DNA of 64,000 nucleotides from contig JACRHW010000006.1 in assembly GCA_016217555.1 (NCBI GenBank), forward strand, positions 18,153 through 82,152. The letters run 5' to 3'. The notes under the pieces are model-generated. The model saw nothing but the letters and a program-made list of their open reading frames with translations, did no database searches and had not been told where the DNA came from. The DNA is from Parcubacteria group bacterium (GTDB taxonomy: Bacteria; Patescibacteriota; Minisyncoccia; UBA6257; JACRHW01). Both the position numbers and the translations under genes were made by a program. Each line of letters begins with the position of its first letter. The stretch's first letter is position 1. This document shows, piece by piece, positions 14,956-34,634 of this stretch.

Positions 14956-15062
14956 GATAACCATACCAATATACGAATGATACTAATACTACAAATCAAT
15001 ACGAATATCGTACGTATTCGTAACCATTCGTATCATTTGTATGGATTCGTATATTAGTATTT
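14956..15062. repeat. 107-bp imperfectly palindromic element (TACGAAT/ATTCGTA-rich, centred on CGTACG), copy 1; exact reverse complement of 34528-34634
   Basis: Base-by-base comparison of both copies. Confidence 0.85.
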
Positions 15063-15072
15063 TGATTGATAT

Positions 15073-15921
15073 ATGAAACCAAACATTGGTGCACACGTGT
15101 CTGCTTCCGGCGGACTTTTTAGGGGTATAGAGAATGCACAGGCGATTGGTGCGGAGTGTCTTCAGCTTTTTGGTGCCTCTCCTCAGCAATGGGTGGCGAG
15201 GATGCCGAGCGATGAAGATTTCGCAAGATTTAGGGAGGCTCGTAAAAAAAGCGGTATTGGTCCTGTCTTTCTACATGCGGCCTATCTTCCTAATCTTGCA
15301 ACGGCTGATCACGGTATGTACGAGAAATCGATTAAGAATCTCTCTGAGCATCTTGCTATTGCAGAACGTATGGGGGTGGAGGGGCTCATTTTTCACGTAG
15401 GATCAGGAAAAGAGGCACCCAAGGAAGAGGCGATTAAGAAGGCAGTTCTCGGCATGAAAAAAATTCTAAAAGTTGTTCCTGGAAAAACAATGCTTATTAT
15501 GGAAAATTCTGCAGGAGGGGGGCAGAAGTTGGGGTCAAGCGCGCACGAGATGGGATTGATGTTGAAGGGTGTTGATTCGGGGCGCATTAAAATATGTATT
15601 GATACCGCGCACGCATTCGAAGCAGGAACCGTGGAGGGGTATACCAAGGAACATGTCAAACAATTTTGTGATGAGTGGGACAAAGAGATAGGGCTAGAGA
15701 ATGTTGTTGCACTCCACGTAAATGATTCTAAAACGGTATTTAATTCTCACCACGATCGGCATGAAAATATTGGCGAAGGATATATTGGACTTGAGGGGTT
15801 CAAAAACATTGCTGCAGAAAAACGACTACACAACAAGGCATGGATTTTAGAGGTTCCTGGTTTTGACGGCAACGGACCTGACAAGAGAAACGTAGATATT
15901 CTCAAATCTTGTTTTAAATAA
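15073..15921 (+). CDS. nfo: endonuclease IV (AP endonuclease)
   Basis: MKPNIGAHVSASGGL..ECLQLF Nfo N-terminus; TIM-barrel xylose-isomerase-like. Confidence 0.85.
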   Translation: MKPNIGAHVSASGGLFRGIENAQAIGAECLQLFGASPQQWVARMPSDEDFARFREARKKSGIGPVFLHAAYLPNLATADHGMYEKSIKNLSEHLAIAERMGVEGLIFHVGSGKEAPKEEAIKKAVLGMKKILKVVPGKTMLIMENSAGGGQKLGSSAHEMGLMLKGVDSGRIKICIDTAHAFEAGTVEGYTKEHVKQFCDEWDKEIGLENVVALHVNDSKTVFNSHHDRHENIGEGYIGLEGFKNIAAEKRLHNKAWILEVPGFDGNGPDKRNVDILKSCFK

Positions 15922-15948
15922 AAAACTTCGCGTATGAGCGAAGTTATA

Positions 15949-16293
15949 TTAGTTAAAAAGTGAGGAGGTGTGTTTTTGTGTGAAAGCGGTTTCTACTATT
16001 TCAAAGGTTGGTTCTTTCGCGTGCCGATCGACGGTTCCTTGTTTGTCGATAATCTTTGCTCGTCTCGCAAGATCACGAAGATTATAGTAGTGTAGTCTAT
16101 GTATTTTTCCGTGAATGTTCAATTCTATCCAGCTTTTTGATTCGATCTGTTCGAGAGTAATGGCGTCTTCTCGTACCAACCTAAGGAGCGTATCCCAAAA
16201 ACAAATAAAGACCTTGGAGAATTGTTCAAACTGTTCATATACCAAATTACAGATGACGACTCGAAACATGCCACTATTCCGAAAAGTACACAT
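15949..16293 (-). CDS. hypothetical protein (possibly the 3' part of a frameshifted gene with 16374-16736)
   Basis: ORF track; adjacent same-strand ORF in another frame. Confidence 0.3.
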   Translation of the reverse strand: MCTFRNSGMFRVVICNLVYEQFEQFSKVFICFWDTLLRLVREDAITLEQIESKSWIELNIHGKIHRLHYYNLRDLARRAKIIDKQGTVDRHAKEPTFEIVETAFTQKHTSSLFN

Positions 16294-16373
16294 GCGGAAA
16301 TCGAAATGAGGGGTTTAAAAGATCACTGCGTGTTTTGATGAAACACACAGGAACCATAGCTGTGTGCAAAGAC

Positions 16374-16736
16374 TCATAAAGTGCAGGAATAAGGTTGCGG
16401 GGGGAGCGTTGCAAGATGTAAACGCTGTGATTCGTCTTTAATATCAAGCAATACGATGATATAGGGATAATCGAGAGGAAGCACCCTATTACACTTCTCA
16501 ACGATAGCACTGATAAGAAGTATATGAAGTACCGGATCTTCTAATCTTGAATGTTCGGGGTAGAGTGCTTGAAATTGAGAAATCGCTTGTCTCGCCAAAT
16601 GTGCGGCAACCACATTAAATGCACCAAGAGATCTTTTTCTTAATTCATCCCTATACTCTTCAAGGATTCTAACGAGCCCCTCAAGTATTTTGGTATTAAA
16701 ATTTTCAAGGATACGCAAATACTCTTCTTTTTGCAT
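16374..16736 (-). CDS. hypothetical protein
   Basis: ORF track 120 aa. Confidence 0.35.
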   Translation of the reverse strand: MQKEEYLRILENFNTKILEGLVRILEEYRDELRKRSLGAFNVVAAHLARQAISQFQALYPEHSRLEDPVLHILLISAIVEKCNRVLPLDYPYIIVLLDIKDESQRLHLATLPPQPYSCTL

Positions 16737-16837
16737 ACAAACACCTTCTTTGCGGTTTATGTGTTATGTACTATCGACACCATACCATAGTATTACGGTG
16801 TCTTGTCAATCATTGCAGGCGCTGTTTTGAAACACAA

Positions 16838-16905
16838 TATTCCCTGAGCGAAGTCGAAGGGTTTCCTTAGAGAAAGGTAGGCCTTCGACAAGCTCAGGCA
16901 CTAGC
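16838..16905. repeat. hairpin repeat CCTGAGCGAAGTCGAAGGG..GCCTTCGACARGCTCAGG, full copy (second full copy 49325-49392; half copies near 44635 and 53283)
   Basis: Seen directly; stem conserved, loop differs between copies. Confidence 0.6.
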
Positions 16906-16970
16906 ACACATGTATTTCCTAAACTGAAACGAGATGCTAATAAAAAGTATTTTTCTCATTTTGTGTTAGA

Positions 16971-17643: not shown

Positions 17644-17812
17644 ACGTGGTATTTTGAATTATGAGACATGAATTCCTCACACGCGAGAATGCCCAGCGGC
17701 ATTCTCGCTCTCTCCACAAGCGCTTCATTGTCAACCCAACTCATTACCATTCGGGGTTGACAACACCCTGCTACGCGCTTGCGGAAGGGTTCGAAATTCA
17801 TGTCTCATAATT
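17644..17812 (+). mobile_element. MITE-like structured repeat, family 1, copy 1 (TIR TTGARTTATGARAYAT; core GCGCTTCATTGTCAACCCAACTCATTACCATTCGGGGTTGACAACACCCTGC)
   Basis: Perfect terminal IR GAATTATGAGACATGAATTC; two internal hairpins; homologous copies at 19898-20057 (inverted) and 23049-23190. Confidence 0.7.
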
Positions 17813-17863
17813 CAAAATGGCCAAGGTATACGAGCTATAAGATACTAAAATATAATAATACAC

Positions 17864-18715
17864 ATGGAACCATTTAAAGATTTTAAAAATAGATTTAAGT
17901 TGCTAGTAAGTAAACATCGACATTTAGTTGTAAATACTTTATCCAATATATTTACAATGAGATTAATTGGAAATAAAACCCATGGAGATTTAGCTGAAAT
18001 AGGTATAGCCGAATTTATTAATCAGTTTATGTATGATTTTAAAAGTATACATGTTGGGAAAGACCTTTTTCGGGCAAAAGAACGTGAGGAGGATATTGTA
18101 ATTATTAACGAGGTTACGAAATCACAATTCCCAGTTGGTTTAAAAGCCTATGGAGATGGTCCATTACAACTCTCAACCGACAGTGATTAGAAGATGTTCC
18201 CTTATCTTGAACAACAAGGTAAGGATATCACGGATAAGAAGAGGATAACTAAAATTTTTGCATCACAGGCGTTTTCTGAATTTAACAATATCAATGTCAT
18301 GCCTCTTATTTATAATGAGAAAAAGAAGCAGTGTAATATAATGATTTTTGACCATGAAAAAGCTATTAAACAGACGGCACGAATTCTTTATATAGGATTA
18401 GGAAAAAGTCATGGGGGCAAAAAGACTGGTAAATCTAGAATGCATCCAATCTTTATGTTTTTAGATAACAAGAGCAATTATATTTGTGAAGTTCGTTATG
18501 GTGGGGCATCAGCAAATGCTCTTCAGAGGGGACTTTGGACGCATACAAGAAATGCTATTTCTTTTTTTGATAGCCTTACAAATGGCTGGATTGATTATTC
18601 ACATAATCACACTTTGGTAAAATTATTTGGTCTAGCATTAAATAGTACGGAAAAAAGCCATAAAGAAGTTAATATACTTTTACAAAAGGATATTGATAAA
18701 TTGAAACAAACTTAG
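17864..18715 (+). pseudogene. putative type II restriction endonuclease interrupted by a single in-frame TAG (18188-18190); the two ORFs 17864-18190 and 18194-18715 are in the same frame
   Basis: Frame arithmetic on the sequence; combined 283 aa; PD-(D/E)xK-like EDIVIINEVTK; adjacent Dam-like MTase. Confidence 0.5.
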
Positions 18716-18716
18716 T

Positions 18717-19883
18717 ATGTCCAAGAACTTATTTAATGAGAAAGATTTTTCTGGGATAAAAACTCAAGGCATTAAATATGCTGGTTCCAAACTCAAAATA
18801 ATCCCTTACATTTTGGAGAGTATCAAAGATTTAGAAATCAAAACAGTATTGGATGGGTTTAGTGGTTCTACTAGAGTAAGTCAAGCTTTTGCTCAAGCTG
18901 GTTATGATGTTACCTCAAACGACATTGCTCATTGGTCTGAAGTATGTGCAAAATGTTTCTTGTTGTATGATAAAGACAAAAAATATTACCAAAACATAAT
19001 TGATGAACTCAATACTCTTGATGGTTATAATGGTTGGTTTACAACTTACTATGGAGGAGGTGAGGTGATGGACGTAAAAATGCCCTTTCAAATTAAAAAC
19101 ACAAGGAGGCTGGACGCAATAAGAGATCGCATTGAGGAATTGAAATTAAATGACATTGATAAATCTGTCATCTTAACAAGTTTACTTTTTGCACTGGATG
19201 CAGTAGATAGTACGCTAGGCCACTTTGTGTCGTATCTTTCTAAATGGTCTAAACGTTCCTATAATGATTTATATTTAAAACTCCCTGATTTGAAAGAAAC
19301 AATTGGTAATCACAACGTCTTAAGAGAAGATATTTTTAAAGTGGTAGAAAATGACTATTTCGATCTTGCGTATTTTGACCCCCCCTATGGCTCTAATAAT
19401 GAAAAAATGCCCCCAAGTAGAGTCAGATATTCATCCTATTACCATATATGGACGTCAGTGGTTAAACACGATAAGCCGGTTCTTTTTGGTAAGGTAAATA
19501 GAAGAGAAGATAGTAAAGATCTTGTTTCAGCTTCTGTGTTTGAGGAGTTCAGAAAAAACAATAATGGAAATTTCATTGCCATGGAAGCAATAAGAATGCT
19601 TATTCAAAATACTAAAGCAAGATACGTATTACTTTCTTATAGTTCCGGAGGAAGAGCGACAAAAAAAGAACTTGAAACAATTCTCAATGAAACAGGAAAA
19701 GTTCTAAAAATTATTGAAATTGATTACAAGAAAAATATTATGGCAAGTATGCGTTGGACAAACGAGTGGTTAAACTCAAATGATGCACATAAGGAATACC
19801 TTTTTTTGATGGAAAAGACTCAAAAAAATTATAAAACTCCCCCAAAAAATCCTTATGCAACAATTCAATCGCACTTTTCATAA
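18717..19883 (+). CDS. N6-adenine DNA methyltransferase, Dam-like (D12 class)
   Basis: Motif I LDGFSGS and motif IV FDPPYGS in alpha-group order. Confidence 0.8.
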   Translation: MSKNLFNEKDFSGIKTQGIKYAGSKLKIIPYILESIKDLEIKTVLDGFSGSTRVSQAFAQAGYDVTSNDIAHWSEVCAKCFLLYDKDKKYYQNIIDELNTLDGYNGWFTTYYGGGEVMDVKMPFQIKNTRRLDAIRDRIEELKLNDIDKSVILTSLLFALDAVDSTLGHFVSYLSKWSKRSYNDLYLKLPDLKETIGNHNVLREDIFKVVENDYFDLAYFDPPYGSNNEKMPPSRVRYSSYYHIWTSVVKHDKPVLFGKVNRREDSKDLVSASVFEEFRKNNNGNFIAMEAIRMLIQNTKARYVLLSYSSGGRATKKELETILNETGKVLKIIEIDYKKNIMASMRWTNEWLNSNDAHKEYLFLMEKTQKNYKTPPKNPYATIQSHFS

Positions 19884-19897
19884 TATGAGCTAAAAGT

Positions 19898-20057
19898 TGA
19901 GTTATGAAATATAAATTTCGAACCATTCTGCAGGTGCGGAGCAGGGTGTTGTCAATCCTTCGCTTTGTGCGAATTGGATTGACAATGAAGCGCTTTCGGA
20001 GAGAGTGAAAATACCGTTGGGTATTTTCACGTGTGAGGAATATATATTTCATAATTC
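19898..20057 (-). mobile_element. MITE-like structured repeat, family 1, copy 2 (inverted orientation)
   Basis: Reverse complement matches copy 1 core with compensatory substitutions in both hairpins. Confidence 0.7.
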
Positions 20058-20079
20058 AACCATACAACAAACACTTATT

Positions 20080-21890: not shown

Positions 21891-22041
21891 CAAAGAAGAT
21901 GGAAAAAATTGCGAAAAATGTGAAAACGGTATATAACGTGGATGAGGTATTAGTTTGTTAGCTATTAGGGATTAGGACGTTTTGATGTTCTAATACACTA
22001 GCCCCTAAAAACTAAAACCTAACATACTAACGTACTGCGCC

Positions 22042-23049
22042 ATGATTACACGTATTGGTATTGATTTGGGGACGGCAAACACACTCGTGTTTGTTCCGAA
22101 GAAGGGCATTATTATCAATGAGCCTTCTATTGTGGCGATCAATTTGAAGACTCGTGCGGTCCTTGCGGTGGGTAAGGAGGCAAAGGATATGTTAGGAAGG
22201 ACACCCGATGATATAGGTGCCTATAAGCCGCTCAAGGATGGAGTGATCGCTGACTATTATATTACGAGATCAATGTTGAAATATTTTATTAACAAGGCAA
22301 CGGGGTTTACCTTGTTTAAACCCGAAGTTGTTATCTCTGTTCCTGCGGGTATTACTTCGACGGAAAGAAGGGCGGTAATTAATGCTGCTGAGGAGGCTGG
22401 TGCGAAAACGGTGTATGTTGTGAAGGAGCCGATTCTCGCGGCACTGGGGGCTGGAATTCCTATCAACTCTCCATCGGGTAATATGGTTGTAAACATCGGT
22501 GGAGGAACAACTGAAGTTGCGGTTATTTCTTTGGGGGGTATTGTGGCATCATCTTCTCTTCGCATTGCGGGAAATAAATTTGATCAGGCAATTGCGGATT
22601 ACGTAAAGAAAAAATATCTTCTTGCGATTGGCGAACAGATGGCAGAAAGGATTAAGATAGAGGTAGGTTCGGCGATGCCAGTAAAAACAAAATTAGAAAT
22701 GGAGATACGAGGGAGGGATTTAGTAAATGGTTTTCCTCAGGTAGTTACCATCCATTCTAATGAGGTTGCCTCAGCAATATCTGATTTGCTTCTCGAGATG
22801 GTGCACACCATCAAAGAAGTGTTTAATGATACACCGCCAGAACTTGCTGCTGACGTTATGGATAAGGGGATTATCGTAAGTGGGGGAGGTGCACTCCTTA
22901 GAAATATTGATGAGTATATCAAGCGCATGACGGGTGTTTCTGCTTTTTGTGTTGAGAACAGTCTTTATTCTGTGGCAAATGGGGCAGGTATCGTTATTAA
23001 TCATCTCGATACCTATCGTAGAGCGCTCGTCACAAAACGATTCAAATAA
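22042..23049 (+). CDS. mreB: rod-shape determining actin homolog MreB (paralog 1)
   Basis: IGIDLGTANTLVFV..NEPSIVAI; actin-fold phosphate and adenosine motifs. Confidence 0.85.
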   Translation: MITRIGIDLGTANTLVFVPKKGIIINEPSIVAINLKTRAVLAVGKEAKDMLGRTPDDIGAYKPLKDGVIADYYITRSMLKYFINKATGFTLFKPEVVISVPAGITSTERRAVINAAEEAGAKTVYVVKEPILAALGAGIPINSPSGNMVVNIGGGTTEVAVISLGGIVASSSLRIAGNKFDQAIADYVKKKYLLAIGEQMAERIKIEVGSAMPVKTKLEMEIRGRDLVNGFPQVVTIHSNEVASAISDLLLEMVHTIKEVFNDTPPELAADVMDKGIIVSGGGALLRNIDEYIKRMTGVSAFCVENSLYSVANGAGIVINHLDTYRRALVTKRFK

Positions 23050-23190
23050 AATTTGAGTTATGAAACATCTCTTTCTCACTCTCCCCGCAAACGCTTCGTT
23101 GTCAACCCAACTCATTGTGATTCGGAGTTGACAACACCCTGTTTCGCGTTTGCAGAATGGTTCGTAATAGATGTTTTATAGCTCAAGGAT
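23049..23190 (+). mobile_element. MITE-like structured repeat, family 1, copy 3 (5' hairpin deleted)
   Basis: TIRs GAGTTATGAAACATC / GATGTTTTATAGCTC; core CGCTTCGTTGTCAACCCAACTCATTGTGATTCGGAGTTGACAACACCCTG. Confidence 0.6.
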
Positions 23191-23204
23191 ATTAAGTATT
23201 ATTT

Positions 23205-23984
23205 ATGAATTCTTTATTTATCGGTAATACATACGCGCGAAATGCGATTACTGAGTATTTTAAGCCTTCCGGAGTACGGAGCTGTGTTTTGTATGGGTTG
23301 AAGGGGCTTGGGAAGTTTACTTTTTTACGTGAGCTTGTGCGCGTGCATGGAAATCAGTGTATCGTTTTAGATACTAGTCTTACCATTCAAATGATGCGGG
23401 AGATAAAACATTTTGCTTCTTTAAGTCAACGGGGGCAGGTGGTGTGTATCCTCGATAATGTGGACACCATGAACGAAGAGGCGCAATCAGCTTTTTTGAA
23501 GACTCTTGAAGAAGCGCCTCATATGGTTTTCTGTATTATTACAAGCAATCTTGATGCACTATTACCTACCATACAATCGAGAATCCCTGCTTTTTATTTT
23601 TCTCCTTGTACTAGTGGGGAGATGAAAGCATTTATTGATGGGCTTGGATCCCATGCAGAGGAAGAGAGAACATTAATAATAAAATACAGTGCGGGGAGAC
23701 CTGGAATTGCTAATGGGTTGGTGGCAAATATAAAAAAACTATGGGAGTTAGATCGTAGTATTTCTTTTCTCTCAGACCCTAACATATATAAACGGCTCCA
23801 TTTTTTTCATGAGTATGGTATACCGCTTTTTGGGGAAAATCCGGAACAATTTATTGATGCGTGTATTTTTTCTTTTGCTCAAAACGATACACAACGAATC
23901 AAAGATGTACTAGAGCTTAAACGAATACTTGATTCAAATGTAAATCCAATATTTCAATTTGAACACTATCTCGCAACACACTAA
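23205..23984 (+). CDS. holB: DNA polymerase III delta' subunit-like clamp-loader protein
   Basis: GLKGLGKFTF P-loop-like, FLKTLEEAP (cf. LKTLEEPP), TIQSRI (SRC motif). Confidence 0.6.
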   Translation: MNSLFIGNTYARNAITEYFKPSGVRSCVLYGLKGLGKFTFLRELVRVHGNQCIVLDTSLTIQMMREIKHFASLSQRGQVVCILDNVDTMNEEAQSAFLKTLEEAPHMVFCIITSNLDALLPTIQSRIPAFYFSPCTSGEMKAFIDGLGSHAEEERTLIIKYSAGRPGIANGLVANIKKLWELDRSISFLSDPNIYKRLHFFHEYGIPLFGENPEQFIDACIFSFAQNDTQRIKDVLELKRILDSNVNPIFQFEHYLATH

Positions 23985-24688
23985 TGGATAAGGCGTTATT
24001 TATTATTTTTTTTATCGTTGGTGTTGGTACGGTTTTGTATTTTACCCCGTTCCTTGTTGGGGGGTTGGGATTTAAGGTAAATAATAATATTATCCGCGAG
24101 CCAGCGAATATTTTTTATTCCTTTGATGGTGGAAAAACTATCAGGGAGGGTGAAGTTCGTGTGGGGGTTTTTGGGAGGCCTAACCCAGAGATTACTTCGT
24201 TTGCGTTTGATCCATCTGATGCAGAAATTGTGTATGCAGGAACACGTGGTGGTGGTATGGTAATGAGCGATGATGGGGGGAGGAGCTGGTATGGATTTAG
24301 TGATCCTAAACAAGTGATTGCCTCGAATGACATTGTTGAAGATGTTTTTGTGCCGGCACCAGATCGAATTGTTGTGGTAATACATAAGGCGGGAACTTAC
24401 GTCGTATATGAGACGATGAATAGTATGAAAACGGTACATGAACTTGCACGATTTAAAGAAAAAGATACTTCTTCTCTCGAAACGTTTCTTGTGAGTGGGT
24501 TAGAGCTTAGGAGAGAAAATGTGAGTATTGCAAAAACGCCCGAGCGTATGCAGTTAGCACTTGCTGCCGTGATTCAGACATCGGGGGATACTCTTACTTC
24601 AACTTTTGGAGAGATGGGCATAAGTATGGGTGTGGTTGCCATTGATCCGCTTAACAGAAGCCATATTATTATCGGTCGCTCGAAATAA
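23984..24688 (+). CDS. hypothetical membrane-anchored protein
   Basis: N-terminal TM; ORF track. Confidence 0.4.
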   Translation: MDKALFIIFFIVGVGTVLYFTPFLVGGLGFKVNNNIIREPANIFYSFDGGKTIREGEVRVGVFGRPNPEITSFAFDPSDAEIVYAGTRGGGMVMSDDGGRSWYGFSDPKQVIASNDIVEDVFVPAPDRIVVVIHKAGTYVVYETMNSMKTVHELARFKEKDTSSLETFLVSGLELRRENVSIAKTPERMQLALAAVIQTSGDTLTSTFGEMGISMGVVAIDPLNRSHIIIGRSK

Positions 24689-24833: not shown

Positions 24834-26066
24834 TTGCGTAGTAGTGAAAGAGGGATTAGAATAGAATTATGCATCAAAGTATTTTTATTTTTTATGAAGT
24901 TTGAATTTCTTTTTGGAAAAAAATCGGAACCACCAAAACGCGAATCTACTCCAGAGGAAAAGGAGGAGTTAAGAAGGCGCGTTGAAGCTGAGCGGTTACA
25001 AGATGAGACGGAGGCGTTGGCGCGCGCAGAGGAGCTTGCGAGTGATCCAAAACGTCGGGCAGAGGCGCGTATTAAAGGTGGCGAGGAGGCAGAAGAGGCT
25101 CGAGGGGTGTTCGAGTCTTTGGAACTTGAGGAAAAAGATGCTTTTTTTGAAGAGGTTCGTAGAGAAGCGGGGGAGGTGACATATCCTGAGCTGGGATTTC
25201 ATGATTTTTATTTATCTAAAGAAGAGATGGGAGAGTATAGAGACCCTAATATTGAGGACCAAAGAAGGAAGGAGCTTCGTAATAGTAGTATTGTACGCCG
25301 TGCTGCTGCACTTGCTATGGAGGTAAAAGGTACGGAAGATAAGACGGAGAGAGTTAGAAAGGAAGAGGTGTTGTACAGAGTTTTAGAAGAACGGATTTCT
25401 CAGGTAAGTGAACTTGCTGATGAGGGGAAGAGAATAGATGCAATGAAAAATATATTGGGTGCTATTGGAGCGCTTGGAAGAGAGCATTCGAGTAGTATCC
25501 TTAAGGGTCTTTTACGTGATAAGGCTTTTCGAGTACTTGTCACGAAAGACGATGGCATATTTCAGAAGGTTGCGGTGATGTTTGAATATATCCCACGAGA
25601 ACATGTTGTGACACTTTTAGAGAATCTCGCTTCGGGAGAAGGAATTAAGGATAAGAAAACGAGAGATGCACTTGCTGCACTTCCGGGACGATTTAAAGAA
25701 CATGTTAAGGAGGTTGGGGAGGCAGAAGTTGCGCGTTTACAGCAGGAGATTGAGAGTGGGGTTGTGAATGGTGCCGAGCTTCGCGAGATTGAACATAAGG
25801 CAAAAAGGCGTGCAGAACTTGTTGACAAATTTGCTCTTACAGAAAAGAATCGCAATGCTAGTTTAAAATGGCAAAAGTTTGGGGATAGTGTAATGGGGGG
25901 AATGGCGAAGGTGGGGGTTGGAGGATTGAATGTTTTGAAGTGGGGGGCATTAAGTGTGGGTGCACTTGCCGCTATTGCTGTTCTTGGTCCTATTGCGCTT
26001 GGAATTTTTGTAGCAAAATATATCGTCGAAAATGGATTAAAGGGTGCGGGGAGGGGAAAACACTAG
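24834..26066 (+). CDS. hypothetical Glu/Lys/Arg-rich coiled-coil protein with C-terminal TM segments (start possibly Met21 at 24894)
   Basis: ORF track; composition. Confidence 0.4.
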   Translation: MRSSERGIRIELCIKVFLFFMKFEFLFGKKSEPPKRESTPEEKEELRRRVEAERLQDETEALARAEELASDPKRRAEARIKGGEEAEEARGVFESLELEEKDAFFEEVRREAGEVTYPELGFHDFYLSKEEMGEYRDPNIEDQRRKELRNSSIVRRAAALAMEVKGTEDKTERVRKEEVLYRVLEERISQVSELADEGKRIDAMKNILGAIGALGREHSSSILKGLLRDKAFRVLVTKDDGIFQKVAVMFEYIPREHVVTLLENLASGEGIKDKKTRDALAALPGRFKEHVKEVGEAEVARLQQEIESGVVNGAELREIEHKAKRRAELVDKFALTEKNRNASLKWQKFGDSVMGGMAKVGVGGLNVLKWGALSVGALAAIAVLGPIALGIFVAKYIVENGLKGAGRGKH

Positions 26067-26072
26067 ACCTAT

Positions 26073-26372
26073 ATGAGTTGGGATTTTTTGGCATTTGTAC
26101 CAAATGAGATTTTGGATCAATTCAGCAATAAAATGCTGCATATTCTTTTGAATCGTTCTTTTGCGAGGCTGTATGAGCTATTGCCTCCTGATGACAAAAA
26201 GCGATTTGATGAATTTCTTAAGATTGATAAAGTAAATGAGGATGAACTTTTACGACGTACCTCATTTTTGGAACAACACAGCGTGGCATTTAAAAAGGTG
26301 CTTCTTGAGGAGGCGCATGCAATAGAACAAGAATTCGCTCAGTTTATAGAACAAGAAGAAAATAAAAAATAA
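26073..26372 (+). CDS. hypothetical protein
   Basis: ORF track. Confidence 0.3.
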   Translation: MSWDFLAFVPNEILDQFSNKMLHILLNRSFARLYELLPPDDKKRFDEFLKIDKVNEDELLRRTSFLEQHSVAFKKVLLEEAHAIEQEFAQFIEQEENKK

Positions 26373-26374
26373 AT

Positions 26375-27394
26375 ATGGACGGGCAGACACCATTACCACC
26401 GGTTTCTCAAAATAGTTTGTTTTCGAGATGGAATACCTTACAAACAAGGAAGACTGCTTATTATATGATGCTTGGTTTAATCGTTGTTGTGGTTTTTTAC
26501 TCCTTTTATGCCATTGGAACACAGGTAAGAGGCCCTGTTACAAAAACTGAAGTAGTGGGTGATAAAACCCCCGCACCTTTGTTTGGTAAGGAAAAATCTC
26601 CTTTTGTGGACACCGTACGGCGTGGAGCAAGTAGCACTATTCCACAAAGGACAGTAGGGGCTGGTGATTCGTTTAGAGTGGTTCAAAAATCTATCGGAGC
26701 ATGTAGTGGATTAGTACCAGAGGGGTGGAGTGCTTTTTCCTCTTCGCATTCTGATGCTGTTGATTTTGTAAGTTCTGACAAAACAATGTATGCGGGTTAT
26801 GGAGCTCTTGGGGTTAATCCTGCGTTTCAGGTGTATGATGCAGAGCTTTATAGTGCAGCGCCAGAGGTGTCTGTCAAGCGCTTTGGTGATCTCATTATAA
26901 GTGGTACGTTCGGTGACGGAAGCAAGCTATTGTATACCAATGATTACAATCAACAGGTGGGTGAATATACGTTACGATCGCTTGAGTCGCAGGGAAGTAA
27001 GGGGGTCGTGTTTTATCGCACATTTCCTGGCGATGGAATAAATTATAGTTATGCCGAAGTTGCGCGTTTTGCTTTTGCAAAAAAGCAGGTGTGGAATGTA
27101 AAGGGAGAACTTGTTGCACGTGTTGCTGCCTCCCTAAGTTGCAGTGTTCAATTTTCACCAAGTGACCAGGCGGTTGTCGGAGGAGGACCGAAGGACAAAT
27201 CTACAAAAGATGAAAATGGGAACGAGTATGGATATAATCCGCAGCTTGGGACTGAATATGTTCACGATGAAAATGGGACAAATTACCTAGTAAGCCCCAG
27301 CAACAGTTGGTCAGAAACGGGACCTTCTGGGGCGGGATACTACAAGTCAACGAATACGGGATGGGAGATGCTGAAGCCTGGTCGGTCAGACTAA
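26375..27394 (+). CDS. hypothetical secreted/membrane-anchored protein
   Basis: N-terminal TM (YYMMLGLIVVVVFYSFYAIG); ORF track. Confidence 0.4.
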   Translation: MDGQTPLPPVSQNSLFSRWNTLQTRKTAYYMMLGLIVVVVFYSFYAIGTQVRGPVTKTEVVGDKTPAPLFGKEKSPFVDTVRRGASSTIPQRTVGAGDSFRVVQKSIGACSGLVPEGWSAFSSSHSDAVDFVSSDKTMYAGYGALGVNPAFQVYDAELYSAAPEVSVKRFGDLIISGTFGDGSKLLYTNDYNQQVGEYTLRSLESQGSKGVVFYRTFPGDGINYSYAEVARFAFAKKQVWNVKGELVARVAASLSCSVQFSPSDQAVVGGGPKDKSTKDENGNEYGYNPQLGTEYVHDENGTNYLVSPSNSWSETGPSGAGYYKSTNTGWEMLKPGRSD

Positions 27395-27397
27395 TTT

Positions 27398-27531
27398 AAA
27401 ACCTACTTCTTTGGCGAACTGCTTCGTTGCACACTGCGATACTCCTTCGCTGTATCATCTGAAATACAGCTCAGTCTGTTTCTCATGTGCGCCTCGCATT
27501 TCATCCAAATAAGTAGGTTTTTGATTTACTT
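27398..27531 (+). repeat. structured repeat family 2, copy A (core CGAACTGCTTCGTTG..GCTGTATCATCTGAAATACAGCTCAGTCTGTTTCTC..GCATTTCAT)
   Basis: Homolog at 41251-41373; closing 16-bp helix differs completely in sequence between copies. Confidence 0.65.
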
Positions 27532-27730
27532 CTTTTCGCGCTTTATCCAAATATATACGTCTTGTCGAATCCAGATTAGACCGGTTTTTTCTTGCCTGAA
27601 CATAAAAAATGAGTATAATCAAGGGACATGAATCCTGTTAGAAGTCGCGCTTGCTACTGCATAATGAGATAAAAAGGGTAATGAATAATTATTAATTTTA
27701 ATATAAATAAGTTGGTTTGCGATTTTTTGA

Positions 27731-28831
27731 TTGCAATCTACCTCTAACGGGATGAAAAAGAAGGTATTTGTTGCTATGTCGGGTGGGGTTGATTCCTCGG
27801 TTGCTGCCGCGCTCCTTGCGAAGCGTGGTTTTGATGTGGTGGGTGTGTATATGAAGTGTTGGTCAGAGGATAATCCTTGTGCAATAAGCGATGAAGCAGA
27901 TGCACATCGTGTTGCAGCGCTTCTTAAGATACCTTTTTATACGTTTGATTTTGAGAAAGAATATGCAAAGAAAGTCGTGGGGTATATGGTGAAGGGGTAT
28001 CAAGACGGGATTACGCCAAATCCCGATGTAATGTGTAATCGTGAAATTAAGTTTGGTCTTTTTTTAAAAACTGCACTTCGTTGGGGGGCTGATTACATTG
28101 CGACGGGGCACTACGTCAAAATGCAAATCTCAAAATGCAAATCTCAAAATGATAATGAAAAATTAAAAAATATTTATAATTTATATCGAGCTAAAGATAT
28201 AAACAAGGATCAGTCATATTTTCTTTGGACACTGACTCAGGAACGGCTTAAGTATTGTTTATTTCCAGTTGGAGGTTATGTGAAGCCGGAGGTGCGCGCC
28301 ATGGCAAAGAAGTTTGGATTACCTACTGCTAGCAAGAAAGATAGTCAGGGTATTTGTTTTCTTGGTCAGGTAAAAGTTGACGATTTTTTGGAGAAGAGAT
28401 TGTTTGGTGTTGAGTCCGGCTCTATTTGCACACTAGATGGTAATGTGGTGGGGGAACATCGGGGTGCAGAACTTTATACTATGGGTCAACGACATGGGCT
28501 TGGCATTGGGGGGGATGGCCCTTATTTTGTAGTTAAAAAGGATATAAAAAGGAATATTGTGTATGTTGCTAAAGGAGATGATCCTGTGCATTTTAAAAAG
28601 GAACTTGTAGTAAAAAAGGTGCATTGGATAAGCGACGTTCCGATTGTTGGCCCAACCAAAGTGCTTTGTCGAACAAGGTATCGCCAACCACTTGTTCGTG
28701 CTACTATTACGCCAAGGGGTAGGAGTGGGATATGTGTGCTATTTGATATGCCACATCGATCAGTTACTCCTGGCCAATCCGTTGTATTTTATACGGGGAA
28801 AAAAATGTTGGGAGGGGGAGTAATAATTTAG
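27731..28831 (+). CDS. mnmA: tRNA-specific 2-thiouridylase
   Basis: PP-loop VFVAMSGGVDSSVAAALL; NKDQSYFLW; contains in-frame 14-bp tandem repeat at 28117-28158. Confidence 0.85.
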   Translation: MQSTSNGMKKKVFVAMSGGVDSSVAAALLAKRGFDVVGVYMKCWSEDNPCAISDEADAHRVAALLKIPFYTFDFEKEYAKKVVGYMVKGYQDGITPNPDVMCNREIKFGLFLKTALRWGADYIATGHYVKMQISKCKSQNDNEKLKNIYNLYRAKDINKDQSYFLWTLTQERLKYCLFPVGGYVKPEVRAMAKKFGLPTASKKDSQGICFLGQVKVDDFLEKRLFGVESGSICTLDGNVVGEHRGAELYTMGQRHGLGIGGDGPYFVVKKDIKRNIVYVAKGDDPVHFKKELVVKKVHWISDVPIVGPTKVLCRTRYRQPLVRATITPRGRSGICVLFDMPHRSVTPGQSVVFYTGKKMLGGGVII

Positions 28832-28849
28832 ATTCTAGATTCCCGTTTT

Positions 28850-30673
28850 ATGGAGATAAGAAATTTTTGTATCATTGCGCATATCGATCATGGAAAGTCT
28901 ACGCTTGCAGACCGCTTTTTGGAATTGACAGGTGCTGTTGAGAAGCGAAAGATGCGAGAGCAGTTTCTAGATCAGATGGATTTGGAGCGGGAGCGTGGGA
29001 TTACAATAAAATTACAACCCGTTCGTATGGTATACAAGCTATTATTTAAAGTTAGAAATTTGAAATTAGAAATTCTAGATTCAGAACAAGAATTCGTATT
29101 GAATCTGATAGATACCCCTGGCCACGCAGATTTCGCTTACGAGGTGTCTCGTTCACTTCTCGCTGTTGAGGGGGCTATTCTACTTGTTGATGCGACACAG
29201 GGGATACAGGCACAGACATTGGCAAATTTTAATTTTGCAAAAAAATGTGGGCTTACTATTATTCCCGCACTTAATAAAATTGATATGCCTGTGCATGATT
29301 TTGATGCACGCATTCTTGAGCTTGCGCATCTTGTGGGTACCGATGTAAATGATGTGAAGCTTATTTCTGGAAAGACAGGCCAAGGGGTGCTTGAGCTGTT
29401 AGATGAGGTGGTAAAAAAAGTTCCTCCTCCCGCGAGAGATCCATCGAAGCCGAGTCGTGCACTTATCTTTGATTCCCATTTTGATAACCACCGGGGTGTT
29501 ATCGCAAACGTGAGAGTTCTTGATGGCATATTTAAGCCGTGGGAACGTATTGTTCTATTTCAGAATGACAAGGATGCTGAAATTATGGAGGTGGGGCATT
29601 TTAAACCAGCTATGGAAAAAGTAGATGAGATTGTTGCTGGGGAGATAGGGTATATCGCCACCGGCATTAAGGATCCCGGTGTGGTTCGTGTTGGGGATAC
29701 GATTGTTTTGAAGCGTGATTTTGAAGCAAAAAAAGTTGCTCCATTTCCAGGTTACGAGGAGCCTCACCCTATGGTATTCGTTTCTTTTTATCCCGATTCC
29801 GCAGATGATTATCTAGATCTTCAAAAGTCACTTTCGAAGCTCAAGTTGAATGATGCCGCGCTTTTTTATGAGCCTGAACAGTCTCTTATTTTTGGACGTG
29901 GATTTCGTGCAGGGTTTCTTGGCTTGCTTCATCTCGATGTTACTATTGAGCGGTTGAAACGTGAATATAATATTGTAACGATTGTTACAACCCCCTCGGT
30001 GTCGTATCAGCTTGTTATAAAAGACGGTACCGTGCGCACCATTTATCGCGCTTCTGATTATGATGATAGTGGAGATATTTTGGAGATACGAGAGCCGTGG
30101 GTGGATCTTGAGATTCTTACCCCAAAACAGTATTACGGAAGTATTTTGTCACTTGTTGATAACTATCGTTTAGAAGTTGGTAATGTTGATAGTTTGGGAG
30201 ATGCACAGGTCGTTCATTTTAAAGCCCCTCTCGCTGAAATTATTATCAATTTTTATGATGCACTCAAGAGTATTTCTCAGGGCTATGCCTCTATGAGCTA
30301 TTCTTTTACAGAATATAGAACGGGGGATTTGGATCGGCTTGACGTGGTTATCGCGGGAGAACGATTTGACGGATTTTCAAGAATCCTTCCAAAGAGTAAG
30401 ATAGAAAGAGAGGCGCGCGCAGTCACTGAAAAGCTTAAAGAGCTTTTGCCGCGAGAAAATTTTTCTGTTGCTATCCAGGCAATAGTAGGAAGTCGTATTG
30501 TGGCACGCGAAACGATCCCCGCTCTCAAAAAAGACGTTACAGGGTATTTGTATGGGGGTGATAGAAGCAGAAAAATGAAACTTTGGAAGAAACAAAAAGA
30601 GGGAAAGAAAAAGCTTAAGCAGTTCGGAAAAGTAACCATCGAACCGCATGTTTTTTACGAGGTATTTAAATAA
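28850..30673 (+). CDS. lepA: elongation factor 4
   Basis: AHIDHGKSTL, DTPGH, NKID G-motifs; LepA C-terminal domain; about 12-aa insertion vs E. coli LepA between ITIK and NLIDTPGH. Confidence 0.9.
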   Translation: MEIRNFCIIAHIDHGKSTLADRFLELTGAVEKRKMREQFLDQMDLERERGITIKLQPVRMVYKLLFKVRNLKLEILDSEQEFVLNLIDTPGHADFAYEVSRSLLAVEGAILLVDATQGIQAQTLANFNFAKKCGLTIIPALNKIDMPVHDFDARILELAHLVGTDVNDVKLISGKTGQGVLELLDEVVKKVPPPARDPSKPSRALIFDSHFDNHRGVIANVRVLDGIFKPWERIVLFQNDKDAEIMEVGHFKPAMEKVDEIVAGEIGYIATGIKDPGVVRVGDTIVLKRDFEAKKVAPFPGYEEPHPMVFVSFYPDSADDYLDLQKSLSKLKLNDAALFYEPEQSLIFGRGFRAGFLGLLHLDVTIERLKREYNIVTIVTTPSVSYQLVIKDGTVRTIYRASDYDDSGDILEIREPWVDLEILTPKQYYGSILSLVDNYRLEVGNVDSLGDAQVVHFKAPLAEIIINFYDALKSISQGYASMSYSFTEYRTGDLDRLDVVIAGERFDGFSRILPKSKIEREARAVTEKLKELLPRENFSVAIQAIVGSRIVARETIPALKKDVTGYLYGGDRSRKMKLWKKQKEGKKKLKQFGKVTIEPHVFYEVFK

Positions 30674-30759
30674 CAGAATCTGGAAGCTAAAATCTAGAAA
30701 AATGGACGGTTTTTTAAAAACTTCCAGATTCTAGTTACTAGATTCTAGATTCCCGTTTT

Positions 30760-31116
30760 ATGCAAAGGTTTCAAATATTTTTACGTTGGTTGCCGATCGT
30801 GAGCCTTCTTTGTGTTGGGATTCTTGTGGGGCATGAGGCGTGGAAACGATATGAAAATTATGCAAGTCTCAAGGAAAGACTTGGTATCCTTGAGGCCGAA
30901 ACAAGAACAATTACCAATGAGAATCGTAGTATTGCAAAACAAATCGAGTGGTATAATGATCCCACCCACCTTGAAGAAAAAGCTAAAAAAGAACTTAATC
31001 TTAAAAAGGAGGGGGAGGAGGTTATTGTTATTGTTGGTAATACTGCCGTTTCTACATCTATTCCAAGTTCATCAAAGAAGCAGGAGGATAAAAAAAGATG
31101 GTGGAATATTTTTTAA
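30760..31116 (+). CDS. septum formation initiator (FtsB/DivIC-like)
   Basis: N-terminal TM followed by coiled coil (LKERLGILEAETRTITNENRSIAKQIEWY). Confidence 0.5.
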   Translation: MQRFQIFLRWLPIVSLLCVGILVGHEAWKRYENYASLKERLGILEAETRTITNENRSIAKQIEWYNDPTHLEEKAKKELNLKKEGEEVIVIVGNTAVSTSIPSSSKKQEDKKRWWNIF

Positions 31117-31157
31117 GACTGTGTAAGAATTGATTCAGTTGTCTATAACAAAAAAAT

Positions 31158-32519
31158 ATGGAAATTAAAAATGATATTTTTCGTCAATATGATATGCGGG
31201 GGGTGTACCCCGAAGGTATTAATGAGTATGTTGCCTATGCAGTGGGAATTTCTATTATTTCGCATCTGAGGCTTAAAAAACCAAAGGTACTTGTAACATA
31301 TGATGCACGCAAATCATCGCGCCCACTTATGCGTGCGCTTGTGTATGGACTTACAGAGGCGGGTGCAAATGTTGTTTGTGGGGGACTTTCTACGACACCT
31401 ATGCACATGTTTCTTGTTGCAAAATATAAATACGATCTTGGGATTATGGTTACTGCGTCACATAATCCTGCACAATTTAATGGGTTTAAAATTAATGTAA
31501 AAGGCGCCAGGCCTTTTTATGGGGAGAAGTTACAAGCTTTTGGTGAGGTATTAATGAAAAAGAATATAGAGTATCCCGCAGAGGCTGTTCAAGCGCTACA
31601 GATACAAGAGAAATCTTATCTTTCTGCATATGTAGATTTTATTATAAAACATCTCCCGCGGGGTATTTCAAAGAAAAAAGTGGTTATCGACCCCTCGCAT
31701 GGTGTTGCGGGTATGGTGCTTAAGGAGGTTGCAAAGAGAAAGAGGCTTACTAATTGGATATTTGTGGCCGATACTATTGATGGAGATTTTTCCGTGCATG
31801 GACCAAATCCGCTTATGTCTGATGCTTTTTCGAAATTTCGTGCAGCGGTACGAAAATATAAGGCTGATTTTGGTGTTATTTTTGATGTAGATGCTGATCG
31901 TGTTTTCTTTCTTCTTTCAGGGTATAAAGAGTATGTGCCCTCAAGTGTTGCCGGCTTTCTTATGGCGCGTACCTATGTTAAGCAAATTCCTCATTCAAAA
32001 ATTCTTTATGAGGTGCGAGCTGGGACGTTGCTTAGAGATGAACTTTTGAATATAGATGCTCGTCCCACTCTTGTCCACGTAGGACATCCTTATTTTAAAG
32101 ACGGTATTCGTAACGAAAAAGCGCCATTTGGGTTTGAGCTTTCAGGGCATTATTATTTTAAGGAATTCTTTTCTGTTGACTCTGGCATTTTTGCGTTTAC
32201 AAAGTTTTTAGGAGCTTTTGTGAAGGAAAAACATGAATTTAAAAAAGAGCTTCTTGTATTCGCAAAAAAACCACATTCACCAGAGATAAATTATGTAGTA
32301 AAAGATAAGGAGGCTGCAATGAAACAGGTGGAAGCGGTTTTTGGTGTAGGGAATAAGGTTTCTCATTTCGATGGACTTTCTATCGAGGCGAAGGATTTTT
32401 ATATTAATATAAGACCCTCTGGCACCGAAGATCTTATTCGTCTTAATGTTGAGGCAAAAAACAAACACATGCTTCGTAGCATAATAAAGCAAATAGAAAA
32501 AGTTATTTCTGGCTCATAA
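31158..32519 (+). CDS. phosphoglucomutase/phosphomannomutase family
   Basis: Active-site TASHNPAQFNGFK. Confidence 0.85.
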   Translation: MEIKNDIFRQYDMRGVYPEGINEYVAYAVGISIISHLRLKKPKVLVTYDARKSSRPLMRALVYGLTEAGANVVCGGLSTTPMHMFLVAKYKYDLGIMVTASHNPAQFNGFKINVKGARPFYGEKLQAFGEVLMKKNIEYPAEAVQALQIQEKSYLSAYVDFIIKHLPRGISKKKVVIDPSHGVAGMVLKEVAKRKRLTNWIFVADTIDGDFSVHGPNPLMSDAFSKFRAAVRKYKADFGVIFDVDADRVFFLLSGYKEYVPSSVAGFLMARTYVKQIPHSKILYEVRAGTLLRDELLNIDARPTLVHVGHPYFKDGIRNEKAPFGFELSGHYYFKEFFSVDSGIFAFTKFLGAFVKEKHEFKKELLVFAKKPHSPEINYVVKDKEAAMKQVEAVFGVGNKVSHFDGLSIEAKDFYINIRPSGTEDLIRLNVEAKNKHMLRSIIKQIEKVISGS

Positions 32520-32563
32520 GACTACCGTCTAAAAGCTAACAGCTATAAGCTAATACCTAATGT

Positions 32564-33136
32564 ATGGATCGTCTCGTTGTTGATATCGAAACAAAAAACA
32601 CCTTTCAGGATGTGGGAGGGGAACATAATATTCATAAACTCAACGCTTCATTGGTAGGTGTGTATTCGTATAAAAAAGATATGTATTTTGGACTTGAAGA
32701 ACACGAGTTTGGTCGGCTTGATGAGCTATTTCGAGGGGCAGAACTTATCATCGGATTTGCAACTAACCGGTTTGATATACCAATACTTCGGAAGTATACA
32801 AAAGTAGACATTAAAAGAATTAAGTCGCTTGATATGTTTGAGGAGGTACAGAAAAAGTTAGGGCGTCGTGTGGGGCTTGGGGTGCTCTGTGAAGCAAACT
32901 TAAAGATTGGAAAAACAGGGCATGGGCTTGACGCGATTGAATATTATAAAAATGGAGAAATCGAGAAGCTCAAAAAATATTGCCTAAATGATGTAAAAAT
33001 TACAAAAGAGTTATATGAATTCGTATTAGATAAAAAGAAACTTTTTGTGCCTGATAAGTATAATCCCCCCGGTGTTTTTTTTGATTTCGACTGGGCCTGG
33101 TCGCTACAGACGAGTTCTCAAGGTATGTTATTTTAG
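32564..33136 (+). CDS. RNase H-like fold 3'-5' exonuclease (YprB/PolB-exo-like)
   Basis: VVDIETK..IGFATNRFDIPIL acidic motifs. Confidence 0.45.
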   Translation: MDRLVVDIETKNTFQDVGGEHNIHKLNASLVGVYSYKKDMYFGLEEHEFGRLDELFRGAELIIGFATNRFDIPILRKYTKVDIKRIKSLDMFEEVQKKLGRRVGLGVLCEANLKIGKTGHGLDAIEYYKNGEIEKLKKYCLNDVKITKELYEFVLDKKKLFVPDKYNPPGVFFDFDWAWSLQTSSQGMLF

Positions 33137-33296
33137 TAAGGTTGTTAATATACTCTTTTTTTCAAATCTCTCACCATGCCTATCCCCGCCCATAGACTCT
33201 TCGATTAATACAACAAAAGATACCCAACCTCTGTAGAGAAGAAGGTGGATCAGGTATTGAAGGAGGCGGGGAAGGGAAAGAAGGATCATAAAGAAT

Positions 33297-33701
33297 ATGA
33301 TCTCGAGGAGAGTATCAAAGAACTCGAACAACGTCTCGGACTATGCAAAAGCAATGCTCAAGAGTCCTTTATTCATCCCCAGCAACAAAGAAGAAATCAC
33401 CCTCGTCCGTCTCACCGTCGCTGATCTTGGGTTCAAGGAGGGAGCCAGGTACAAGGATATCATCGCTCGAGCTAAGGAATTAGGTCTCGACTACTGTCCT
33501 GCAGAGGTCGGTCCTCAACTCCGTCTTCAGTATCAGGATCAGCCAAGTGGCGAGTGGCTTCGCATTGCGACGAAGCCCATCATCGGCCCCAACAACATCC
33601 CGAGCGTCTTCTCGCTGGGACACGGTGTCGGCGGCTTGTGGTTGGACGACGATTGGGTGGGACTCGGCAGCGAGTGGTACCCATATGTGATTGCACGATG
33701 A
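33297..33701 (+). CDS. hypothetical protein, compositionally atypical (GC-rich)
   Basis: Visibly higher GC and G/C-ending codons than neighbours. Confidence 0.4.
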   Translation: MISRRVSKNSNNVSDYAKAMLKSPLFIPSNKEEITLVRLTVADLGFKEGARYKDIIARAKELGLDYCPAEVGPQLRLQYQDQPSGEWLRIATKPIIGPNNIPSVFSLGHGVGGLWLDDDWVGLGSEWYPYVIAR

Positions 33702-33976
33702 TGAATGGTGCAAGGTGTACCACATAGGTTTCTAGTATTTCACGGATGGTATGATACAGCATACCACTGTAATAAATTAGCATTCTCCGATAGTTCCGAA
33801 TACAATATGATATGTGTACATAGAGGAATGGTACAAAAATTTGAATAATGGGAAGAGAACATATACAATGAAAATAATAAATTAACGAGCTTATGGCTTT
33901 TAGCTAATAGCTTCTAGGATAAAAAAATATAGGATGGGATCCTAAAAGCTAACAGCTAGAAGCTAAAACCTGAGTT

Positions 33977-34516
33977 ATGGATTATATAAAACAATTTGAA
34001 GTATGGCTTAAGAAATCGCTTGAAGAATTTACACACGAAGTGCGGTCTATTAAGGCTGGTCAGGCCTCGCCCGCACTTGTCGAGGACGTGAGGGTGTCGT
34101 GTTATGATGGGCAGGTAATGCAGCTTAAACAAATTGCTGCTATTTCTGTGTCTTCTTCGCGAGAACTTCTTGTACAGCCCTGGGATAAGACTCTTATTAC
34201 TAACATTACTAAAGCACTTGCTGATCTCCCGGGAGGTATTCAGGCGACACCCAACAAGAATGTAGTTCGTCTTACCCTTCCTATGCTTACCGAAGATCGT
34301 AGAAAAGAATTTATTAAACTTGTGCACAATAGTGTTGAGACAACACGCATACGAATGAGAAAAGAGCGGGATGAGATTAATAAAAAAATTGATACTATTG
34401 CGGCTGAGGATGAGCGGTTTCGTACGAAAGAACGTATTGATGAGGTAATGAAAAGTGCTCAGAAAGATATTGATGAGGTTGCGGCACAAAAGGAAAAGGA
34501 ACTTCTTTCATTTTAG
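33977..34516 (+). CDS. frr: ribosome recycling factor
   Basis: Full-length RRF similarity (VRSIKAGQASPALVEDVRV..LTEDRRKEFIKLV). Confidence 0.9.
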   Translation: MDYIKQFEVWLKKSLEEFTHEVRSIKAGQASPALVEDVRVSCYDGQVMQLKQIAAISVSSSRELLVQPWDKTLITNITKALADLPGGIQATPNKNVVRLTLPMLTEDRRKEFIKLVHNSVETTRIRMRKERDEINKKIDTIAAEDERFRTKERIDEVMKSAQKDIDEVAAQKEKELLSF

Positions 34517-34527
34517 TATGTAATTTG

Positions 34528-34634
34528 AAATACTAATATACGAATCCATACAAATGATACGAATGGTTACGAATACGTACGATATTCGTATTGATTTGTA
34601 GTATTAGTATCATTCGTATATTGGTATGGTTATC
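34528..34634. repeat. 107-bp palindromic element, copy 2 (inverted relative to 14956-15062)
   Basis: Exact reverse-complement match. Confidence 0.85.

Follow-up and report, generated by a model that had tools for sequence, protein, structure and literature searches.

Two identical palindromes that face each other across a block of genes raise the question of whether they serve to invert the block, or came to lie on either side of it by separate insertions. Such a pair is present in a metagenome-assembled genome (MAG) of a Parcubacteria group bacterium, in a 64,000-nt stretch of contig JACRHW010000006.1 (hereafter the window), where a 107-nt element at positions 14956-15062 recurs in inverted form at 34528-34634 and brackets a 19.5-kb block that runs from nfo to frr. 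The element is probably a non-coding, non-autonomous mobile palindromic repeat of the kind represented by miniature inverted-repeat transposable elements (MITEs), REPINs and ERIC sequences, drawn from a widespread family whose recurring unit is the heptad TAC-N-AAT. At the locus itself this reading is mostly deflationary: it makes the inverted pair two insertions of a small repeat and not a designed inversion switch.

An earlier note on this DNA described the two copies as exact reverse complements, and this was confirmed at 107 of 107 positions. The match ends abruptly on both sides, and the 123-nt arms at 94% identity returned by a repeat search consist of the 107-nt core plus flanking sequence that matches by chance; an exact match of 107 nt within 64 kb is itself far beyond chance. 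Copy 1 has what we call orientation A, with its ATACCAAT... end first on the + strand, and lies between a 91-aa open reading frame (ORF) and nfo; copy 2 has orientation A on the - strand and lies between frr and an rseP-like protease gene. At both sites the element is entirely intergenic; it is non-coding and short, as are MITEs, which measure less than about 500 bp. Its description as an imperfect palindrome of TACGAAT and ATTCGTA units, centred near CGTACG, also held once the units had been mapped in both copies. The palindromic cores extend from 14963 to 15060 and from 34530 to 34627, with TACGAAT at 14972, 15000, 34539, 34558 and 34568, and ATTCGTA at 15016, 15026, 15045, 34584 and 34612. 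The TAC-N-AAT heptads of copy 1 read ATACCAAT, ATACGAAT, ATACTAAT, CTACAAAT and ATACGAAT in one arm, and ATTCGTA three times, ATTTGTAT and ATTAGTAT in the other. In both copies the mirroring of the arms spans ATACCAATATACGAAT to ATTCGTATATTAGTAT, which gives the element the terminal inverted repeats of a MITE. The terminal tier of ATACCAAT and ATTAGTAT contains a C.A mismatch that recurs in subfamily members at L045, L055, L078 and L036, loci that were not selected for it.

Folded as RNA on the + strand, copy 2 reaches -38.4 kcal/mol (z -4.1) and copy 1 reaches -28.2 kcal/mol (z -2.6). Within one copy, the inner parts of the two arms are only about 70% complementary; since the copies are nevertheless identical over 107 nt, an imperfect sequence has been copied as a unit. 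Independent Logan unitigs (k=31, run SRR12113407) break off at 14985, 15034 and 34557, so that they reach 29-30 nt into the repeat at three of the four edges, which is how a k=31 graph behaves at a true repeat, and thus the repeat and its boundaries exist in the reads.

Comparison with relatives indicates that both copies are lineage-specific insertions, because close relatives have short spacers without the element at both sites. In relatives whose RseP proteins are 81%, 81% and 68% identical, and which keep the order frr-rseP-proS-mreB-mreC-PBP2-greA, the spacer between frr and rseP is 6, 12 and 7 nt long (ATGTAA, ATGTAAGCAATA and ATAAACA; empty sites L155, L156/L157 and L158/L159), against 128 nt in the window, where it consists of TATGTAATTTG, the 107 nt of the element and CAAAGATATA. 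Upstream of nfo there is no hairpin in relatives whose Nfo identity is 85%, 84% and 69%; the gene that precedes nfo there, a NUDIX gene or a small ORF, ends at most 19 nt from it. Multiple copies combined with presence and absence at orthologous sites are typical of MITEs, and other MAGs carry several copies per genome. The segment at 12841-14941, which encodes a GCS2-like ligase, a dual-specificity phosphatase and the 91-aa ORF, is absent upstream of nfo in relatives L161-L164, and with a neighbourhood so unlike that of its relatives copy 1 sits at a synteny break.

The earlier note had counted a failure to find the element elsewhere among the grounds for refutation, but the family is present at more than 150 other loci. 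A scan for the pattern TACGAAT N1-6 TACGAAT N6-12 ATTCGTA over contigs representing one genome per species matched at least 117 stretches, compared with an estimated 20 or so chance matches over the whole collection; the source genome was not among the matches listed. By record title, the matches listed included about 75 from Patescibacteria, or the candidate phyla radiation (CPR), 17 from Omnitrophota and 10 from Bacteroidota (one on a 919-kb contig), and a few labelled Gammaproteobacteria or Bdellovibrionales. The CPR lineages among them were Moran-, Jorgensen-, Uhr-, Kaiser-, Sungii-, Collier-, Roizman- and Gottesmanbacteria, 'Saccharibacteria' and others. These loci and the window together contain 141 mirrored clusters of at least five units, and none was found in shuffles of 60 of the sequences. 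A second scan, of metagenome loci in a set without the source species, used the window element's own ends (ATACCAATATACGAAT N40-70 ATTCGTATATTAGTAT) and added 33 further loci. An nhmmer profile built from 26 independent subfamily members recovered the two copies at E=2e-17 and had no other match in the window. Similarity is higher among copies of one genome than among those of different genomes: at least 90% identity was reached by 12 of 126 pairs in the first case and by 19 of 9465 in the second (p=3e-11). At the gathering score, neither the window nor any of six element-rich loci gave a relevant Rfam match, and Rfam in E-value mode returned only sub-threshold, AT-rich miRNA hairpins for the element. 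Nor was a description found in the literature searched for the motif, for palindromic or MITE repeats of CPR/Patescibacteria, or for rRNA insertions. The family is therefore large, spread across several bacterial phyla and apparently undescribed.

Its members sit mostly between genes of the same direction (91 of the 141 clusters, with 14 between convergent and 11 between divergent genes), at median distances of 9 nt from the upstream stop and 18 nt from the next start. Clustering of 872 ORFs from the loci showed that the neighbours are ordinary housekeeping genes. Three genomes with DnaB proteins about 51-62% identical (L044, L045 and L080) have TACGAAT hairpins, of different subfamilies, at the junction downstream of dnaB; the coincidence, judged about as frequent as chance allows, could be due to chance, to a hot spot or to long-term retention. 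Other members lie inside 23S rRNA genes, six of them in a single gene (L117 2798-7152, DAIDAM010000002.1), with further copies in L053, L061, L133/L140/L145 and L138/L146. Alignment of L117 to the Rfam model placed two of the hairpins in terminal loops, at model positions of about 160-169 and about 282, where an 8-nt loop has grown to 125 nt and a 6-nt loop to 128 nt, a lengthening of about 120 nt. Some of the 23S hairpins have outer GC-rich layers of the CGCTTCGC/GCGAAGCG type. GC-rich mini-hairpins of the CCTGCC...GGCAGG type lie inside TACGAAT elements in L018 (about 3785-3822), L079 and L112, a nesting of one family of small repeats within another.

Several candidate functions and structures were tried at these loci and set aside. 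The hairpins are not intrinsic terminators, as across the family the 8 nt past the stem contain a mean of 2.4 T and only 5% contain at least five; no terminator-like or promoter-like site was found within either window copy. On the sense strand, the 8 nt that precede the hairpin are rich in A throughout the family (mean 4.2 A; 55% have at least five); on the antisense strand this would read as a hairpin plus T-tract, and it may simply reflect TAA stops and A-rich gene ends. One-sided arrays, considered as possible partner elements, turned out to be long-loop hairpins, nested insertions or contig ends. A seeming case of two arms 1 kb apart (L065 3280-4540) was an extensive, almost perfect fold-back in a long-read MAG, surrounding a small gene for a membrane protein, and is probably an assembly chimera rather than a complete element.

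What the arrays conserve is chiefly the sequence of their units. The common layout is a mirrored array of TAC-N-AAT heptads whose starts are most often 8 nt apart (range 7-11). Positions 3, 5 and 6 (C..AA) hardly vary across 370 mirrored unit pairs, being invariant in at least 98%. At position 4 the two arms disagree in about 24% of the pairs, and the changes there (78 single, 12 uncompensated double and 5 compensated double) show no excess of compensation. Linkers of one nucleotide are Watson-Crick in 23 of 67 cases, no more than the 26.8 expected by chance. Within the subfamily of the window element, inner arms match their own partners at 0.70 and the partner of a stranger at 0.62, a slight difference. 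An invariant C..AA, an uncompensated centre and linkers, and a paired foot (weighed below) together suggest that the constraint falls mainly on the heptad sequence of each arm and on closure of the foot, and not on pairing throughout. Selection of one strand at the RNA level was rejected, as orientation relative to transcription is random: RNA folding is better on the sense strand in 44 cases and on the antisense strand in 46, mismatches on the sense strand are G.U in 106 cases and A.C in 111, and the polarity of the subfamily, as set by the conserved C.A mismatch, runs either way relative to genes (9:7).

These observations bear on whether the hairpins are instead maintained by the host as RNA, serving as processing or stability elements in operons and rRNA precursors, for example as RNase III sites or 3'-end protectors. 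Such hairpins would work in either orientation because they are palindromic, and their placement just after a stop and before a start within co-directional gene pairs, their stems of 31 pairs at the median, and the shared junction downstream of dnaB would all suit this role, as would their location exactly at rRNA helix tips, in the manner of known excised intervening sequences. The compensated changes at the hairpin foot point the same way, but the central base of the unit and the linkers are uncompensated, the sense strand has neither an excess of G.U over A.C nor a folding advantage, and there is no U-tract. Close relatives do without the element at both window sites, and same-junction coincidences are, by our estimate, at about chance level for 117 loci; on balance we consider an RNA function selected by the host unlikely. 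The near-invariant C..AA, the 8-nt period, the free central base and the independent variation of the arms would also be expected of arrays bound as double-stranded DNA by a conserved protein, either of the ribbon-helix-helix type or nucleoid-associated, that polymerises on 7-8-bp repeats and acts in regulation or chromosome organisation and not in mobility. They recall the 8-bp metbox arrays of MetJ and the arrayed heptads to which the pSM19035 omega protein binds. The earlier note had named both binding-site arrays and MITE copies as possibilities, and a multi-copy family of mirrored TACNAAT arrays with copies absent from relatives fits both. Nonetheless, a purely regulatory or architectural array seems decidedly improbable to us, given that nearly all units belong to mirrored sets able to form hairpins (141 clusters, compared with about 29 one-sided ones, several of them long-loop hairpins or cut by contig ends), that six copies lie within one 23S rRNA gene, and that there are exact duplicate copies as well as empty sites in relatives; the many other mirrored arrays of unrelated units in the same genomes of about 1 Mb would, moreover, call for many different proteins.

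The proposal in the earlier note that the pair drives inversion of the nfo-frr block stands as a matter of geometry and gained no support otherwise. The block is flanked by inverted repeats, as an invertible DNA switch must be, and two identical inverted repeats of 107 nt are long enough for homologous recombination. Against relatives at 68% and 65% identity, however, tblastx showed the segments at 22042-24454 and 33974-34516 inside the block and 34645-43428 outside it to be collinear and on the same strand, and only the assembled orientation was seen in relatives. GC skew is uniform, at +0.19 to +0.20 inside and +0.18 to +0.19 outside. Together with gene strand, collinearity and skew indicate that the assembled orientation is the long-term, ancestral one. 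Pfam scans found no invertase or recombinase gene in the block or its flanks, family members elsewhere are single and scattered and do not form bracketing pairs, and inversion would set about 20 co-oriented genes against their neighbours, so that a functional or recurrent switch is very hard to credit. It is similarly far-fetched that the pair is an assembly artefact, whether through collapse or duplication of a repeat or through a chimeric join at copy 1. Assemblers do mis-join contigs at repeats, and copy 1 lies at a synteny break, with a NUDIX gene or small ORF upstream of nfo in relatives in place of the GCS2/phosphatase locus; but independent k=31 unitigs join unique flank to 29-30 nt of the repeat at three edges, the copy 2 junction agrees with relatives, and a repeat of 107 nt falls below both the usual read length and the k=141 used for sister MAGs (as inferred from contig names).

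The reading we prefer, that of a mobile palindromic repeat, draws on the exact copying of an imperfect sequence, the empty sites, insertion in either orientation, nested hairpins, insertions in rRNA loops and the greater similarity of copies within genomes. A number of observations weigh against it. No target-site duplication was found at either copy when the flanks and the relatives' empty sites were compared, in contrast to what is usual for MITEs: copy 1 is flanked by AAACATAA and TGATTGAT and copy 2 by ATGTAATTTG and CAAAGATA, with no direct repeat. The duplicated 107 nt are asymmetric about the palindrome, with 7 extra nt on one side and 2 on the other, and there are only two copies within 64 kb. 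In about 0.87 Mb of loci no transposase-like gene recurs beside the elements, nor did the loci examined show a full-length, autonomous element with TACGAAT arms. A single viral contig matched, whereas plasmid and phage records gave no match, which leaves the route between phyla unexplained. Pairing at the foot of the hairpin also does seem to matter: in the 370 mirrored unit pairs, positions 1, 2 and 7 vary in about 8% with many compensated doubles, and the three bases outside the outermost units are complementary in 91, 82 and 73 of 140 cases, compared with 46, 50 and 52 expected. Lastly, a C..AA that is nearly invariant across phyla could equally reflect a function for the host.

If the element is a mobile repeat, one master sequence, already imperfect, would have been copied recently into two very short intergenic spacers in opposite orientations, and the two identical copies would bracket 19.5 kb by happenstance, one having entered upstream of nfo and the other between frr and rseP. 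The heptads may be recognition sites for a mover acting in trans, such as a transposase, a recombinase or a hairpin-binding enzyme, in which case hairpin formation would be largely a by-product of mirrored arrays of sites. We propose that hairpins do little damage between cistrons or at the end of an rRNA helix, and that this is why the insertions are tolerated. Inversion between the copies would be an incidental RecA event, probably counter-selected because it would reverse about 20 co-oriented genes.

The wider implication is that genomes labelled as three or more phyla share a short module with almost no change of base, placed in the intercistronic spacers of very compact genomes and at 23S rRNA helix tips. 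Should the module be mobile, some enzyme moves hairpins in organisms thought to be poor in mobile elements; if it is selected by the host, the family marks a shared nucleic-acid-binding factor. Either way, these elements break short-read CPR assemblies, as the Logan unitigs illustrate, and can pass for structured RNAs or regulatory sites.

The window has a GC content of 41%, with its main genes nearly all on the + strand, and encodes exact matches to MBI5420886.1 and, as the nfo product, MBI5420863.1, proteins from an 82.8-kb contig of a MAG labelled 'Parcubacteria group bacterium'. Upstream of copy 1, the 91-aa ORF (14666-14941, +), which has no Pfam match, is the last gene of the GCS2-like ligase/dual-specificity phosphatase locus. 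The nfo gene for endonuclease IV (15073-15921, +; Pfam AP_endonuc_2, 7.5e-40) starts 10 nt past copy 1. At the other end of the block, the stop codon of frr, which encodes ribosome recycling factor (33977-34516, +; Pfam RRF, 2.6e-39), lies 11 nt before copy 2, and the gene for an rseP-like site-2 protease with M50 and PDZ domains (34645-35706, +) starts 10 nt past it. The earlier note's description of the block as housekeeping genes holds for the most part: it contains nfo, nth, yggU, mreB, holB, mnmA, lepA, divIC and frr, a major facilitator superfamily (MFS) transporter, a phosphoglucomutase-family gene and an exonuclease-like gene, but also a D12 DNA methyltransferase and several ORFs without a Pfam match. 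The methyltransferase, an N6-adenine enzyme of the D12 class, is carried with two small ORFs on a segment of about 2.4 kb (17654-20059) that has imperfect inverted repeats at its ends, about 160 nt long and 83-84% complementary, with a third copy of the repeat at 23073-23186. In relative L163, nth is followed directly by yggU, and this segment thus looks like an inserted mobile cassette. A further 9.3 kb or so, at about 24800-33700, separates a 234-aa gene from frr and contains mnmA, lepA, divIC, the phosphoglucomutase-family and exonuclease-like genes and four ORFs of unknown function, three of them Pfam-less; in relatives L158 and L160 the counterpart of the 234-aa gene almost directly precedes frr. 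The window's own 23S rRNA gene (60424-63724) has a group I intron inside it (62733-62947), and a second group I intron match lies just past its 3' end (63736-63931).

Other intergenic hairpins with arms of periodic short units are found in the window at 30674-30759, 37014-37122, 41878-41979, 21891-22041, 33887-33979 and 48395-48483, with units that include AGAATCT, CAAAAC, CTAA(A)AC/CTAAAAC and AGCTAA. The loci of the family contain 34 more mirrored short-unit hairpins, with CTAATT, AAAGTC, CGGATT and others as further units, and those built from TACGAAT may be one variety within a wider class. The window also contains four copies of a GC-rich hairpin repeat (CCCTGAGCGAAGTCGAAGGG ... CCTTCGACAAGCTCAGG; 16821-16904, 49310-49393, 44624-44660 and 53274-53310) and two-copy repeat families at 27410-27510/41262-41362 (87%) and 43442-43504/44426-44488 (86%); the copy at 41262-41362 is part of a long hairpin between genes, at 41252-41421. 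It is possible, though we advance this only tentatively, that the mirrored TAC-N-AAT hairpins of Patescibacteria, Omnitrophota and Bacteroidota are a single, very widespread and undescribed mobile family recognised by one conserved putative protein, that in ultra-small bacteria they give rise to expanded rRNA or to intervening segments, and that they represent one form of a general class of mirrored short-unit hairpins filling intergenic spacers.

Among known systems, TIGR arrays (TIGR-Tas) are comparable in that they consist of short periodic repeats, occur in genomes of the CPR type and escape standard repeat finders. They are made up of two alternating 8-12-nt repeats with 9-nt variable spacers and adjoin a Tas gene with a Nop domain (PMC12045711), whereas the TACGAAT elements are mirrored, have no spacers and no Tas gene, and neighbour nfo, frr and rseP, and this identity was rejected. 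A 77-bp inverted repeat of Porphyromonas gingivalis (PMC3969353) is unrelated, with TACGAAT occurring only once, at its end. The Correia elements, which are MITEs of Neisseria, are similar in being about 100-150 nt long, almost entirely inverted repeat, situated beside genes and co-transcribed as hairpins; unlike the window copies, which show neither duplication nor a promoter-like signal, they have a duplicated TA target as well as motifs for IHF and promoters. ERIC/IRU sequences of Enterobacteriaceae and Vibrio are imperfect palindromes of about 100-127 nt that occupy transcribed spacers in either orientation, are present or absent at orthologous sites and have no known transposase, in all of which they resemble the TACGAAT family. 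Their sequence is unrelated, though; they lack periodic heptad arrays, and they are limited to a few gamma-proteobacterial families, whereas the TACGAAT family spans Patescibacteria, Omnitrophota and Bacteroidota labels.

The insertions in 23S rRNA have a parallel in the Rickettsia palindromic elements and in the 23S intervening sequences of Salmonella, Leptospira and Campylobacter, palindromic insertions tolerated in genes for structured RNAs, although these belong to different sequence families and different hosts. REP sequences and REPINs, which are associated with RAYT, the Y1 HUH transposases, likewise occur between genes in multiple copies, as hairpins whose long stem is made by two inverted halves, with no target-site duplication and a polarity set by a conserved mismatch. 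There, however, each half is a palindrome of 20-40 nt with a conserved GTAG ahead of it, whereas the TACGAAT arms are direct arrays of heptads and not small palindromes, and they lack an external GTAG: CTAC/GTAG occurs only as part of the paired outermost unit. No RAYT or other transposase-like gene was found adjacent to any copy in the 64 kb of the source or in pieces of up to 8 kb of the other genomes. The multi-site ends of Mu and Tn7, the metboxes of MetJ and the omega heptads offer an analogy only, as the TACGAAT family has no conserved terminal dinucleotide, duplication or cognate protein that we could find; what it has in common with them is an architecture of several short direct sites in each arm, set in mirror image, in which sequence and not pairing is conserved.

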